Positions 10,354 to 14,758 of a stretch of DNA of 51,901 bases are shown piece after piece (positions within the stretch are counted from its first letter, which is position 1; every line of letters starts with the position of its first letter). The notes below the pieces were generated by a model. The model was given only the letters and a program-made list of their open reading frames with translations. It was not told the origin of the DNA and searched no databases. Position numbers and translations under genes: made by a program. Source of the DNA: an uncultured Erysipelotrichaceae bacterium (lineage in GTDB: Bacteria; Bacillota_I; Bacilli_A; RF39; UBA660); the NCBI GenBank assembly GCA_902767365.1, contig CACXGX010000026.1, positions 1 through 51,901 of the forward strand. Reading direction: 5' to 3'.

Positions 10354-10423
10354 ATTGTTATTATTTACTATTTAATTGTAATTATGATATTATTATATTA
10401 TATGAGATAGTGGGGTAATGCTT

Positions 10424-10738
10424 ATGTATTTCAAAATAGATTATGATAAAGTAAATGATATAGGAAAATCTATGAAAGTTAAGAGTGAAGAATTAGACTC
10501 TTTATATAGAGATGTTTTAGATATATGTCATGAAATTGGTAGAAATTATATTAGTGAAGACTCTACTGTTTATTTATCAAGGTTTGAAGATTATATAAAA
10601 GATTTTATATATGAAAATCAATATTTAAGAGAAGGCGGATATACTTTATATAGAATATCTAAATTATATGGTAGTCAGGAAGAAGATTGGGCAAAAACTG
10701 TTTATAATAGTGACTTAAATAAAAGAGGTGAAAACTAA
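10424..10738 (+). CDS. small helical protein, first gene of a WXG100/LXG-like effector operon
   Basis: About 104 aa, with no signal peptide and a charged, probably helical composition. Its stop overlaps the start of the next gene (TAATG). The ATG at 10424 has better SD spacing than the one at 10418. Confidence 0.6.
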   Translation: MYFKIDYDKVNDIGKSMKVKSEELDSLYRDVLDICHEIGRNYISEDSTVYLSRFEDYIKDFIYENQYLREGGYTLYRISKLYGSQEEDWAKTVYNSDLNKRGEN

Positions 10739-11064
10739 TGCGATATAATGGAATTTTTTTAAATATTGACGCTTTAGTTGATTTGGCTTTTAAATTGGGA
10801 AAAAAAATTGAAGAAATAAGTGATTGTTATGATTCTGTTAAAACACTTGAAAGACAAATAGATGGAAATAATGATAATTGGAAAGGTGACGATCAGAAAG
10901 AATATTATAATACAATTCAACTTGTAACTGGATCCTATCATTATAATGTTGATAAACTTATAGAAATATATGATTTTTTACTTAAAATAATTGATGATTA
11001 TGAAACAAAAGATGAAAGTTTTGGCAAGGATATAGATAGAAATGCTGATAACTTTGATGTGTAA
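10738..11064 (+). CDS. WXG100 (ESAT-6-like) family candidate
   Basis: 108 aa with a central W-x-G (NDNWKGDDQKEYY) at residues 48-50, between two helix-like halves. SD GAGGTG upstream. Confidence 0.65.
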   Translation: MRYNGIFLNIDALVDLAFKLGKKIEEISDCYDSVKTLERQIDGNNDNWKGDDQKEYYNTIQLVTGSYHYNVDKLIEIYDFLLKIIDDYETKDESFGKDIDRNADNFDV

Positions 11065-11073
11065 GGTGATGCT

Positions 11074-12471
11074 ATGATAAAATATGATTCTCAGATAGGA
11101 GATACTATTGTTTCTAATATGAATGAAGCAGGTTCTATTTTAAAAAGTAATATATCTAGTACAATTATGTCCGATTATAATGCACTTGTTAGTGTAGGAT
11201 TGTTTAGTTCTCAACTACAAAGTATCTCGGATGCTGCTAGTAGCTTTTCACAAGCATTTGAAAGTTTTTCTTCAATAATTAGTGAAAATAAAAAGGCTTG
11301 GGCAAAAGTTCAAGAAGAAACTACTATTGAAATTAAAAATTATTCTGATGCGGTAAATAATGTTGTTAGCGCTAGTCCAAAATATAATACATATGGAACA
11401 AACTTAGGAAACTATAATGGTAATTATAATGGAGCTAGCAAAAATAATGGTGGTTATACATCTAATGGAAACTCTAGTGAAAATCATTATAATAATACTG
11501 GAAAAATTAATAATGTAAGTCTTAGTGCTAAAACTAAGATAAATGTTAGTGATGTTATTAAGGGAAAGGAAATATCTACTAAAACAGTAAAAGATTTTAT
11601 AACTAAGTTGGATGTTTCTATTATGCCAATTTTATTGCAGAAAATAACAAAATATGCTAATGGTGAATCTTTGTTAGAGTTACTAACTGATACTTCAAAG
11701 TCTAATATCCTTGTAAAAATTTTAAAACAAATTTTAGGTGATACAACTCTTGAAGTACCAAAAATAGATGTTGATACTAAAAATATACAAAAAATTATAT
11801 TAGAAAAGTTAAATTTAAATAAAGTCGATATAAAAACAGATGATGGAAAAACAGTTGTTAAAAAAGTAATTAAAGATCAAGTAAGTAAAAAGGTTGACGA
11901 TGCGGATTGGAATAAGGCTTTGTATGGAGAAAATACAATAAAAAAACAAATACTCGATGGAAATTGGGTAGTAGCCAAAATGAAACAAGATATAGTTTCA
12001 TATGAATCTTATCTTCAAAATAATGGCGTAAAGCAAGATGCTAACTCTAAAGAATGGGGAGATTCTTGTTTAGCTTTTGCAGGTGCTCATACATATGATT
12101 TATATACTGGATCACAAACTTCTGGTCAAAGTGCAGCAAACTATGCTCATGCAGGTGCATATGAAGATTATATGAGTGATAATAAACAAGAAGTACTTGC
12201 TAAAATATATGAAGAAATTATGAATGGGCGACCACTTGTTTTACAAGTAAATGGTAATAAAGCAGGTACTAGTAGGCATTTTGTTACAGTTGTTGGATTT
12301 AAAGAAGGTGTAACAAGTGGGGCTGATCTTAAAGAAACAGATTTATTAATAATCGATAGTTGGGATGGCAAAATTGAAAGAATGGATACAGGAACATCTA
12401 GATTTATGACTTCTGGAAAAGATTGTGGAAAAGACTATAGTGGTTATAGATTAAGAATATTTAAAGGATAG
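11074..12471 (+). CDS. multidomain protein: helical N-domain, N/G-rich linker, and C-terminal papain-like cysteine peptidase domain
   Basis: No signal peptide. The N-terminal ~100 aa are Ser/Ala/Ile-rich and probably helical. The linker reads NLGNYNGNYNGASKNNGGYTSNGNSSENHYNNTG. The C-terminus carries GDSCLAFAGAH (Cys), SRHFVTVVGF (His) and LLIIDSWDG (Asp). Confidence 0.75.
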   Translation: MIKYDSQIGDTIVSNMNEAGSILKSNISSTIMSDYNALVSVGLFSSQLQSISDAASSFSQAFESFSSIISENKKAWAKVQEETTIEIKNYSDAVNNVVSASPKYNTYGTNLGNYNGNYNGASKNNGGYTSNGNSSENHYNNTGKINNVSLSAKTKINVSDVIKGKEISTKTVKDFITKLDVSIMPILLQKITKYANGESLLELLTDTSKSNILVKILKQILGDTTLEVPKIDVDTKNIQKIILEKLNLNKVDIKTDDGKTVVKKVIKDQVSKKVDDADWNKALYGENTIKKQILDGNWVVAKMKQDIVSYESYLQNNGVKQDANSKEWGDSCLAFAGAHTYDLYTGSQTSGQSAANYAHAGAYEDYMSDNKQEVLAKIYEEIMNGRPLVLQVNGNKAGTSRHFVTVVGFKEGVTSGADLKETDLLIIDSWDGKIERMDTGTSRFMTSGKDCGKDYSGYRLRIFKG

Positions 12472-13446: not shown

Positions 13447-13470
13447 TTATTATAGATAAAGAGGTGGAAT

Positions 13471-14721
13471 ATGGGAACAATACCACAAGAGTTAGAATCT
13501 TTTAAAACCCAAGTAGGTAGTGTAGATGGGATGAAAGGTAAAAGTACTCAAATACAAGAATCATTGAATGCCTTAAATGCAGCGTGTTCAAGAGCAGGAT
13601 CAGGATTGGATAGTTTTTATAATAGTTCTAATAAGAGTAGTATAATTGCAAAGTTTACTAAAATTACTAATATTATTAATAAGATTAGTGCAAGTTTAGG
13701 TAGTGATTTGAATAAAATGTTATCTGAGTCTGATGAAATTATTAAAAGTGTAGATGAACTTGCTAAAATTAATAAAGAGATAGATGCATTAAATGAAGAA
13801 ATAAATAAATTAAATACTACAATTAGTAATGAAAGAAGCAAAAGTGAACCTTCTCAGTCAGTTATAAGTGATACAAATAGTCAAATAAGTTCAAAAAAGA
13901 GTAGTGTAGATGAAAAAGAAGCAGAGTTTACTAAATTAGCTAACGAAGCAATGAATAAATTGAAGAAATTAAAAGCAATGGATTCAGATTTAGCATTTGT
14001 AGCTGAATTTACATCTAATGATTATACTGCTAAATTGGATCAATTATCTTATGGTTCATTTACTCATGAATCATTTACTTCTCCGACAACAGGAGTTAAA
14101 GTAGATTACTATCTTTATGTTCCTGATTATGGAGAAGAAGTTGAAAATTTACCAATACATATGTATTTACATGGATCTGGTGAAAATAATTCTGGAGTAC
14201 TTAGTTGTGGGCTTCCTGCATTAATTAATAGTAAACAAATAACACCATCTGGAATTGTAGTATGTGTTCAATGTCATGGTTCTGATTTTGATAAAAAAAA
14301 TTATCAACAAGCTTTGCTTGAATTGAATAATCATATAGCTGAAACAAAAAATGGTGACAAAAATAAGATTTCACTTAGTGGACACAGTTGGGGTGCTATT
14401 ACAGGTTACAAGATGTTAGTTGATTATCCTGATTATTTCTCTGCATTTTTGCCAATAAGCGGAAGGCCAACTTCAGCTTTGGGGTATACTACTACAAAAG
14501 TATGGGGCTTTCATGGAGCACATGATTCAGCAGTTGCATATGATAGCGGTAGAAAAGCTATTGAAGATTTAACTAGAGCAGGAGCTGATGCAACACTTTA
14601 TACTTATGAAAAAGAAGGACATGGTCGTGTTCAAGATTATACTTTTCAAAGAGAATTTCAGTATAAGGATGGAGAAATGTATAATCCACTTGAGTGGGCA
14701 TTTCAACAAGAAAAAGCATAA
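13471..14721 (+). CDS. multidomain protein: coiled-coil N-domain and a C-terminal alpha/beta-hydrolase (COG4099/PHB-depolymerase-like esterase)
   Basis: No signal peptide. The first ~180 aa look helical (EIDALNEEINKLNTTISNE). The C-terminus carries YYLYVPDYG..LPIHMYLHGSGENNSG, the nucleophile elbow GHSWGA, GFHGAHDSAV and KEGHG. Confidence 0.75.
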   Translation: MGTIPQELESFKTQVGSVDGMKGKSTQIQESLNALNAACSRAGSGLDSFYNSSNKSSIIAKFTKITNIINKISASLGSDLNKMLSESDEIIKSVDELAKINKEIDALNEEINKLNTTISNERSKSEPSQSVISDTNSQISSKKSSVDEKEAEFTKLANEAMNKLKKLKAMDSDLAFVAEFTSNDYTAKLDQLSYGSFTHESFTSPTTGVKVDYYLYVPDYGEEVENLPIHMYLHGSGENNSGVLSCGLPALINSKQITPSGIVVCVQCHGSDFDKKNYQQALLELNNHIAETKNGDKNKISLSGHSWGAITGYKMLVDYPDYFSAFLPISGRPTSALGYTTTKVWGFHGAHDSAVAYDSGRKAIEDLTRAGADATLYTYEKEGHGRVQDYTFQREFQYKDGEMYNPLEWAFQQEKA

Positions 14722-14729
14722 TTATTTAG

Positions 14730-14758
14730 GAAAACATTATTTTATGTTTTCTTTTTTT
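14730..14758 (+). terminator. rho-independent terminator closing the 10.4-14.7 kb operon
   Basis: gaaaacat/atgttttc stem followed by a T7 run. Confidence 0.8.

Follow-up and report, generated by a model that had tools for sequence, protein, structure and literature searches.

The window discussed here is the whole stretch of 51,901 nucleotides (nt) from an uncultured Erysipelotrichaceae bacterium (contig CACXGX010000026.1, assembly GCA_902767365.1). It contains an operon of five genes, here called g1 to g5, all on the plus strand between positions 10418 and 14721 and spaced by -1, 9, 9 and 24 nt. The first two encode small proteins of about a hundred amino acids (aa); the remaining three encode larger ones with a helical head and a different domain at each C-terminus. 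An earlier note, made from the letters alone, had considered the operon an orphan battery of LXG-like effectors of a type VII secretion system (T7SS). Its coordinates and gaps proved correct when the open reading frames (ORFs) were checked. Its interpretation can be kept in part: the locus appears, on balance, to be a type VII-like export module with WXG100 partners, yet not an LXG-like toxin battery.

The operon and its boundaries

Each of the five genes has its own purine-rich Shine-Dalgarno sequence, as the earlier note had claimed: gtgggg (g1), agaggtga (g2), aaggtga (g3), aggggga (g4) and agaggtgga (g5). The true start of g1 is probably the ATG at 10424 (MYFK...), because all homologues and the other gene callers begin at MYFK. 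The G+C content is 29% in the operon and 26% in the window; within the operon it climbs from 24% (g1) to 31% (g5).

The operon had also been described as bounded by terminators. This is true for its downstream end, where the hairpin is convincing, whereas the one after uppP is a marginal, weak intrinsic terminator (Table 1). A consensus terminator scan flagged neither of them, because it demands three G-C pairs, which are absent here. None of the five products has a signal-peptide-like N-terminus or a transmembrane (TM)-like segment, the maximum 19-residue Kyte-Doolittle mean being 1.12. Hydropathy and inspection of the N-termini thus agree with what had been said of the large and the small proteins.

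Table 1. Features of the operon and its flanks (H, helix; AF2, AlphaFold2; pLDDT, predicted local distance difference test; dG, folding free energy)
Feature	Position	Strand	Remarks
AT-rich hairpin and T-run after uppP	10327..10355	+	dG -6.9 kcal/mol, z=-1.9
Promoter-like site	10364..10393	+	TTTACT, 18 nt, TG-TATTAT; 9/12 matches, TG-extended -10; consensus match only
g1	10418-10738	+	106 aa; WXG100-superfamily small helical protein by family profile, degenerate member
g2	10738-11064	+	108 aa; WXG100-superfamily small helical protein by family profile
g3	11074-12471	+	465 aa; helical hairpin, linker, mid domain, predicted peptidase
g3, residues 1-99	11074..11370	+	N-terminal helical hairpin; H6-40, turn 41-44 V-G-L-F, H45-99; pLDDT 87-90
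g3, residues 100-165	11371..11568	+	Disordered Asn/Gly/Ser-rich linker; pLDDT below 50
g3, residues 166-285	11569..11928	+	Compact helical mid domain, LLTDxxKSxILxxxLKxILGDT; pLDDT ~90
g3, residues 286-465	11929..12471	+	Predicted papain-like cysteine peptidase (Peptidase_C39_2-like); alpha/beta, pLDDT ~90
g4	12481-13446	+	321 aa; three-helix head, beta-rich C-terminal domain
g4, residues 1-135	12481..12885	+	Three-helix N-domain; H18-44, turn 45-49, H50-103, H106-131; pLDDT 80-92
g4, residues 181-321	13021..13446	+	Beta-rich domain; low-confidence AF2 model, Foldseek
g5	13471-14721	+	416 aa; helical head and esterase
g5, residues 1-185	13471..14025	+	Helical/coiled-coil N-region; relatives not detected
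g5, residues 186-416	14026..14721	+	Alpha/beta-hydrolase esterase; G-H-S-W-G elbow; T. maritima EstA-like
Operon-ending hairpin and T-run terminator	14728..14760	+	dG -8.7 kcal/mol, z=-4.5

The small partner proteins

Taken alone, g2 stays below the cut-offs of the pertinent profiles: it scores 17.1 bits against 27.3 for PF06013 (E=7e-3), 24.1 against 44.85 for TIGR03930 (E=3e-5) and 21.9 against 33.7 for the YwqH-like PF16888 (E=2e-4). Alone, g1 has no WXG100 profile match in Pfam or NCBIfam at all. Word-indexed homologue searches yielded few proteins, 2 with g2 and 15 with its family, and the two families were therefore gathered from neighbouring ORFs of recruited loci; they comprise 13 (g1) and 17 (g2) sequences.

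At the level of families, the relationship becomes clear. All 17 members of the g2 family match PF06013 at E<=0.1 (best 4e-11), 13 match the YwqH-like family PF16888 at the same threshold (best 2.6e-6), and 3 match LXG. Among proteins of known structure, the g2-family profile aligns with B. anthracis EsxB (4j41) across residues 2-92 at E=5e-5. It runs end to end on EsxB, on SAG1039 and gbs1074 of S. agalactiae and on EsxA of G. thermodenitrificans and S. aureus with E-values from 5e-5 to 1.5e-3; LapA4 (8gmh_C) is reached at E=0.29 only. Six of the 13 members of the g1 family match PF06013 (best 7e-12), and its profile finds S. aureus EsxA (2vs0) at E=2e-4. When the two families are compared by hhalign, they are linked with 96.4% probability (E=1e-9), and the alignment superimposes their W motifs as well as a Y-x-x-x-D/E near the C-terminus.

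The W-x-G seen by the earlier note in the second small protein is W48-K49-G50; W48, like G43, is invariant across the 17 homologues. Equally invariant is Y88 in Y-E-T-K-D (Y88-x-x-x-D92). The g1 family has W-x-S/G at the corresponding place, with Y43 in place of W in the window, and an invariant Y84 in Y-G-S-Q-E (Y84-x-x-x-E88). Because family members match PF06013, the family profiles find EsxA and EsxB and hhalign links both families, g1 and g2 are, as judged by profile comparison, mutually homologous members of the WXG100 superfamily that form a non-identical pair. A WXG100-like nature thus applies to both small proteins, not to g2 alone.

The three large proteins

The AlphaFold2 model of g3 was built from 31 homologues and has a mean pLDDT of 79. 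It shows a hairpin at the N-terminus, and the Gly-Leu turn pointed out earlier falls exactly on its turn, where L43 and F44 are nearly invariant (family motif [G/N/S/D]-L-F-S-x-Q-L). In the model the linker spans residues 101-163, the mid domain 169-284 and the alpha/beta domain 288-465; the linker differs in length between homologues. For the mid domain, relatives were found in neither Pfam nor the PDB. The papain-like peptidase that had been proposed for the C-terminus is recognised by Peptidase_C39_2 (PF13529; 27.3 bits, cut-off 24, residues 313-412), and most g3 homologues carry a precomputed match to this family. Q321, C332, H402, D428 and D431 are invariant in the 31 sequences and presumably represent the catalytic/oxyanion set. 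A PDB relative was not found by sequence. Foldseek retrieved papain-like folds only, and these weakly (E>=0.03): the best was the Josephin-type BpJOS (0.03), others were IdeC/IdeS, RavD, staphopain C, AvrPphB and calpain. The domain is thus predicted, from sequence and model, to be a clan CA peptidase of the Peptidase_C39_2 type.

Homologues of g3 number 286 among gut and rumen metagenomes. Its head is rare, with 117 clusters among 1.84 billion representatives; it always stands at the extreme N-terminus and occurs in two size classes and architectures only.

In g4 the model shows three helices, and the first predicted helix-helix turn carries the nearly invariant W47-x-E49-x-G51; the glycine of the Gly-Leu turn noted earlier, G51, is part of this motif, and the turn is thus real in g4 as well. 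Its C-terminal module is indeed beta-rich, as far as a low-confidence model can tell. The Pfam search with it was empty. In Foldseek every match was an Ig-like or a carbohydrate-binding (CBM-like) beta-sandwich, among them the SrpA adhesin (6e-4), accessory domains of glycosidases and sialidases and the Ig domain of LdtMt2. Probably, the domain is an Ig-like beta-sandwich and a putative ligand binder.

For the head of g5, relatives were found neither in Pfam nor among the recruited loci. A relationship to g2 was considered and discarded: jackhmmer had drifted via a match of E=0.0085 in a tiny database, and hhalign did not confirm it. The esterase is better defined. It matches T. maritima EstA (PDB 3doh) at E=1.3e-12 over residues 176-413, LC-Est1C at 7e-8 and Peptidase_S9 with 32.6 bits (cut-off 22.6); together with the G-x-S-x-G nucleophile elbow, the 3doh match bears out the COG4099-like serine esterase of the earlier note. 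Among the mapped loci (see below), g5 is present only in the window's species and, by this distribution, is a species-specific add-on to the module.

The helical character of the N-regions of g3 and g4 is thus corroborated by the models, with the conserved motif at the first turn in either case. A literal L-x-G is indeed absent: V41-G42-L43-F44 in g3 and W47-x-E49-x-G51 in g4 occupy an analogous position but differ in sequence. That the heads are nevertheless LXG-like had to be abandoned, since the tests in Pfam, NCBIfam, PDB profiles and hhalign were negative throughout. PF04740 gave zero matches at E<=1 to g3, g4 and g5 and is missing from the families listed for 31 members of the g3 head family (g3N) and 11 members of the g4 family; PDB profile searches with g3N and g4 returned neither LXG nor Lap entries; and hhalign of the heads against the WXG100 families of g1 and g2 did not exceed 17.7% probability.

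Related loci

Hidden Markov models of the individual parts were mapped on 48 loci, the neighbourhoods being defined as +-10 kb around each module. The species representatives that contain relatives are metagenome-assembled genomes (MAGs) labelled as uncultured Erysipelotrichaceae, Bacilli, 'Clostridium sp.' or 'Tenericutes'. Two layouts occur. Layout A, that of the window, is g1, g2, g3N-mid-C39, g4N-Ig. In layout B, a g3N-mid protein of ~305 aa precedes g1, g2 and a g4N-C39 fusion, with or without an additional g4N-Ig. In all 48 loci a WXG100 pair adjoins every gene with a g3N or g4N head. A single g3N protein and a single C39 domain are found in each module, together with one or more g4N proteins; the C39 domain may sit on either head.

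In seven species layout A occupies one and the same place in the chromosome, flanked by a dnaB/dnaD-like gene on one side and by an HD-domain gene with serS on the other. At this position a conserved extra ORF that could serve as immunity gene was not found in any of the seven, in line with the earlier note, which had seen no obvious one. Layout B recurs between rpsT-gpr-spoIIP and infC, in company of two or three small membrane proteins. These are encoded upstream of the modules (L042-L052 in our numbering of loci, e.g., L048:7739-8697 and L052:5965-6598) and are of three types: ~100 aa with an N-terminal TM helix, ~115 aa with a C-terminal one, and ~90 aa with two. The type of ~115 aa weakly matches MSC_0620_UU052.

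Mean pairwise identity is 60% in the peptidase, 42% in the mid domain, 33% in the hairpin and 30-32% in the WXG100 partners. A cargo that is more conserved than its head is, on these alignments, the opposite of what characterises a polymorphic toxin. The picture of a loose effector battery does not fit: g1 to g4 form a fixed module at the same position in seven species. Rather than as three effectors with a shared partner pair, the module is better seen as a single assembly of several subunits: a g3-type head, at least one g4-type head and the WXG100 pair, to which g5 is added in a single species.

Where does the cargo go? Stand-alone C39 paralogues bear a Sec signal peptide or, at the N-terminus, two to three TM helices. 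Because of these signals and anchors the peptidase domain should act outside the cytoplasm, and an extracellular destination of the g3 cargo is likely. A peptidase of this kind, anchored by two or three TM helices, is found directly downstream of priA in L021, L023, L024, L027, L031 and L041 (e.g., L021:7179-10573). Its conservation in several related genomes suggests a housekeeping, wall-associated role for the peptidase family.

Some other contexts of C39-like domains deserve mention. In L030:7278-11558 three signal-less proteins with helical/WXG-like heads carry an endolysin-like/NlpC-P60 (ELLD) amidase, a phage-tail lysozyme and a C39-like peptidase, respectively, and three adjoining WXG100 genes exceed the Pfam cut-off; to judge by its domains, the locus seems to hold a battery of wall hydrolases linked to WXG100 proteins. 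The MAG is labelled Muribaculaceae, probably wrongly. Other paralogues live in surroundings that resemble type IV secretion systems (T4SS) or integrative and conjugative elements (ICE): in L033 beside a VirD4-like coupling protein, in L035 fused with M23. The latter locus (L035:2666-10495), from a MAG labelled Candidatus Nanosyncoccaceae (candidate phyla radiation), encodes two proteins of 1042 and 1308 aa that end in a C39-like domain; its setting looks T4SS/ICE, and the M23-like region in the larger one was read by eye only.

In the closest species, a second WXG-type module lies upstream (L009:2692-7183). Its proteins are a helical-head protein of 341 aa, a WXG100 protein of 101 aa, one of 294 aa that has a WXG100-like domain at the C-terminus and one of 742 aa in which a helical head is combined with many 'ERANGDV' repeats.

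Comparison with known systems

The closest relatives in design are the LXG-Lap complexes of T7SSb, such as TelA-LapA3-LapA4 and TelC-Lap1-Lap2 of S. intermedius or YwqJ-YwqH/I of B. subtilis. There the LXG-Lap-Lap heterotrimer is the targeting unit; the turn motif is buried in the partner, an aromatic-x-x-x-acidic arm is needed for export, and a C-terminal acidic residue is universally required (PMC10801868). The module shares with them the two small WXG100-like partner genes directly upstream of signal-less enzymes with a helical carrier, the conserved motif at the carrier's first helix-helix turn and the aromatic-x-x-x-acidic motif of g1 and g2, which recalls the FxxxD of Lap1 (PMC10801868). 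Members of the g2 family also match YwqH-like (13/17) and LXG (3/17) profiles. The carriers themselves, however, are different. They do not match LXG, the head of g3 has ~100 aa instead of the ~200 aa of an LXG domain, and [G/N/S/D]-L-F-S and W-x-E-x-G replace L-x-G. Further differences are that two different carriers always go with one partner pair, that an immunity gene is missing, that the cargo is conserved and the position shared in seven species, and that T7SSb core genes are not in view.

In mycobacteria, the substrates of T7SSa comprise EsxA/EsxB heterodimers and the PE/PPE carriers, e.g., the PE-lipase LipY. The non-identical WXG100 pair with Y-x-x-x-D/E is reminiscent of them, and so is a hydrolase joined through a linker to a hairpin carrier of ~100 aa; the parallel to PE-LipY is g5. 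Unlike T7SSa, the module resides in a low-GC genome of the Bacillota type and has no homology to PE/PPE, and neither an EspG-like chaperone nor an ESX locus was seen.

In the new subtypes T7SSc-j, candidate substrates similarly adjoin small extra WXG100-related genes, which were proposed to be co-secretion partners, and non-identical WXG100 pairs occur in some of these subtypes, T7SSe and T7SSg (Garrett, Higginson and Palmer 2024, PMC11217815). There, a substrate was recognised by its nearness to a TsxC ATPase, whereas the module has no linked ATPase, and its carriers g3N and g4N belong neither to the LXG nor to the RHS types described in that paper.

Two further systems are comparable by their enzyme. 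EssH of the S. aureus T7SSb is likewise a papain-like cysteine hydrolase tied to WXG100 proteins and T7SS, and it acts in the wall (PMC13059805). EssH, however, has a Sec signal and a CHAP domain, in contrast to the hairpin head and the C39_2-like domain of g3, whose peptidoglycan activity is putative. Tox-PLC39 is a C39-like C-terminal module found on varied trafficking heads including WXG-type ones (Zhang et al. 2012, PMC3482391). In the module, by contrast, the C39 domain is the most conserved part (60%), lacks an immunity partner and stays at a fixed chromosomal position.

Proposed mechanism and alternatives

With partner genes upstream of carrier-plus-cargo proteins, the layout matches that of T7SS substrates, as had been noted earlier. 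In polymorphic toxin surveys, WXG-like heads were strictly associated with T7SS (PMC3482391). We propose the following mechanism. The heads of g3, g4 and g5 would bundle with the g1/g2 pair to form a composite helical targeting complex. Its recognition element would likely be the conserved C-terminal Y-x-x-x-D/E of g1 and g2, and an FtsK/SpoIIIE-type T7SS ATPase, encoded at another place in the genome, would take over the complex. The cargo domains, tethered by disordered linkers, would thus cross the membrane without Sec signals. Outside the cell a C39_2-type cysteine peptidase, an Ig-like binder and an esterase would then act on the envelope or surface, most likely on peptidoglycan or other wall polymers. 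Given the parallel to the wall hydrolases of L030, the simplest guess for g3 is a substrate in the cell wall or at the surface; the host genome makes a wall, as is evident from uppP, uppS, cdsA, rseP and glmS in the window.

Because of its conserved position, a cargo more conserved than the heads and the lack of an immunity gene, the module behaves like a secreted hydrolase complex that is conserved within its lineage, and not like a toxin-immunity island that varies from strain to strain. These reasons, together with the unrecognised carriers and the fixed two-carrier architecture, are also why we do not file it under LXG/toxin batteries. Of the earlier interpretation, the T7SS-type part stands, with its WXG100 pair and signal-less carriers; the LXG-like toxin battery fell with the profile searches and the pattern of conservation. 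The analysis shows to which family g1 and g2 belong, how the domains are arranged, that the genes strictly co-occur, that Sec signals are lacking and that the peptidase paralogues have an extracytoplasmic topology; the complex, its dependence on T7SS and the substrate are inferred.

We consider an export module of the type VII kind somewhat more probable than all other explanations taken together, but several findings weigh against it. The earlier note had seen no machinery of the EssC/EsaA/EssA/EssB type in the 52-kb window, and with good reason: an FtsK/SpoIIIE-type multi-ATPase (EssC/TsxC), YukD, EssB and EsaA were not found there. Nor was any T7SS core gene found within 10 kb of ~50 related modules. 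An FtsK-like multi-ATPase was absent among all ORFs of at least 550 aa of 41 loci, and a T7SS ATPase was not found around five further members of the g2 family either; the large ORFs near related modules encode PriA, PolC, PFOR, SMC, LeuRS and VirD4. In addition, the heads of g3, g4 and g5 failed the homology tests for WXG100 and LXG in Pfam, PDB profiles and hhalign, and a helical hairpin is a generic fold. Finally, the predicted substrate is a guess, and the weak Foldseek matches of g3 include proteases of host proteins, IdeS and Josephin.

If no ATPase is in sight, is one needed? The bundle could be of the WXG100 fold and yet independent of a type VII ATPase: it might stay in the cytoplasm until freed by lysis or during sporulation, or take another route, e.g., via small membrane partners. 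The lack of T7SS core genes in the sequence examined speaks for this possibility, as do the housekeeping-like position shared by seven species and layout B, which sits between rpsT-gpr-spoIIP and infC next to two or three small TM proteins. Such TM partners are, however, missing from layout A, that of the window, and the negative result on core genes covers only +-10 kb per module. Also, the peptidase domain is extracytoplasmic in its Sec/TM paralogues. All studied WXG100 proteins leave the cell via an EssC/EccC ATPase, and every described T7SS subtype has one (PMC11217815). Taken together, we regard an ATPase-independent bundle as unlikely, albeit the best of the alternatives. A related idea, which we rate a shade lower, is that the WXG100 pair and the two (here three) unrelated heads not only target the cargo but build a stable extracellular complex of peptidase, Ig-like binder and esterase, which would serve gut Bacilli with small genomes as a chromosomally conserved, housekeeping-type envelope tool and be exported without a canonical EssC-type T7SS. 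If true, this would be the first case in which a WXG100-dependent system does without the known ATPase, or else relies on a machine not yet recognised.

A classical antibacterial battery of LXG-type polymorphic toxins, acting by contact on competitors and exported by T7SSb with g1 and g2 as Lap-like partners and with immunity provided elsewhere or unneeded, appears improbable to a similar degree. Its heads should match the LXG profile, which they do not; an immunity-like ORF is not conserved after any of the effectors in seven species; identities of 60% in the cargo and 33% in the heads are the reverse of what polymorphic toxins display; and the 117 clusters with a g3N head, out of 1.84 billion representatives, show two architectures only. 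Of course, the partner genes do stand upstream of carrier-cargo proteins. C39 has been recombined onto at least four types of heads plus Sec/TM forms, a hallmark of effector cassettes; Tox-PLC39 ranks among the peptidases of polymorphic toxins (PMC3482391); lipase/esterase toxins of T7SS, TslA and TslM, are known (PMC13560087); and L030 contains a battery of wall hydrolases.

The hydrolases might also be a dedicated cell-wall set that serves a secretion or DNA-transfer apparatus, like EssH or the NlpC/P60/CHAP hydrolases of Gram-positive conjugative T4SS. EssH, a papain-like CHAP hydrolase, is needed for T7SSb assembly (PMC13059805), and the C39 paralogues beside a VirD4-like coupling protein (L033) or fused with M23 (L035) fit such a role. 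But EssH has a Sec signal and g3 has none, apparatus genes of T4SS or T7SS do not flank the window module or its orthologues, and relatives were not found on plasmids (PLSDB) or viral contigs. This makes the explanation quite unlikely. That the window module itself derives from a plasmid or a conjugative element was rejected on the negative PLSDB search; only some C39 paralogues are T4SS-linked.

Lysis or structural genes of a prophage or mobile element, suggested by weak matches of the coiled-coil N-regions to tape-measure and other PHROGs, the tRNA-Lys gene immediately downstream and a Mob_Pre gene in one related locus, are effectively refuted: the PHROG matches are coiled-coil noise, none being significant, relatives are absent from 2.9 million viral contigs (IMG/VR) and from PLSDB, neither an integrase nor phage genes are nearby, and seven species share the chromosomal position.

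Substrate recognition by T7SS in Bacillota is understood nearly entirely via the LXG-Lap complexes of cultured Bacilli. The type VII-like export module proposed here adds two carrier families, g3N and g4N, which are undetectable by LXG or WXG100 profiles but strictly coupled to a WXG100 pair. It shows that one peptidase cargo can ride either carrier and that such loci can hold one chromosomal position across species without immunity genes. It also suggests that type VII-style export serves conserved extracellular hydrolase complexes in abundant uncultured Bacilli of gut and rumen. Should an EssC-type ATPase prove absent from the host genomes, this would challenge its supposedly universal coupling to WXG100 proteins.

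The remainder of the window

Directly past the operon terminator lies a gene for tRNA-Lys(CTT) (14828-14903) with a strong hairpin/T-run terminator of its own at ~14939-14970 (dG -9.2, z=-3.7). Three larger ORFs follow. The first (15002-16108) encodes a 368-aa protein that consists almost wholly of ten DUF4116 repeats (E=9e-133). The second (16366-17898) encodes a protein of 510 aa in which a long N-terminal region without Pfam match precedes a GNAT acetyltransferase domain at the C-terminus; within the same species it is kept downstream of the module. The third (18107-21127) encodes a presumed surface protein of 1006 aa that has Ig-like segments besides Listeria-Bacteroides (Flg_new) repeats. 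Repeat proteins of a similar kind flank the related modules in L004 and L043.

Upstream, a 275-aa ORF (8659-9486) shares 44 nt with the 3' end of lon; Pfam does not recognise it, but other assemblies call it as a gene. The sole secretion-related machinery in the window is a T2SS-F platform protein with an adjoining A24 prepilin peptidase (43261-45713), a pair of the type IV pilus/competence type. The remaining ORFs are housekeeping genes (hisS, aspS, pyk, lon, uppP, smc, ruvAB, queA, addAB, glmS). The strand bias is extreme, 36 of the 39 ORFs of at least 100 aa being on the plus strand.

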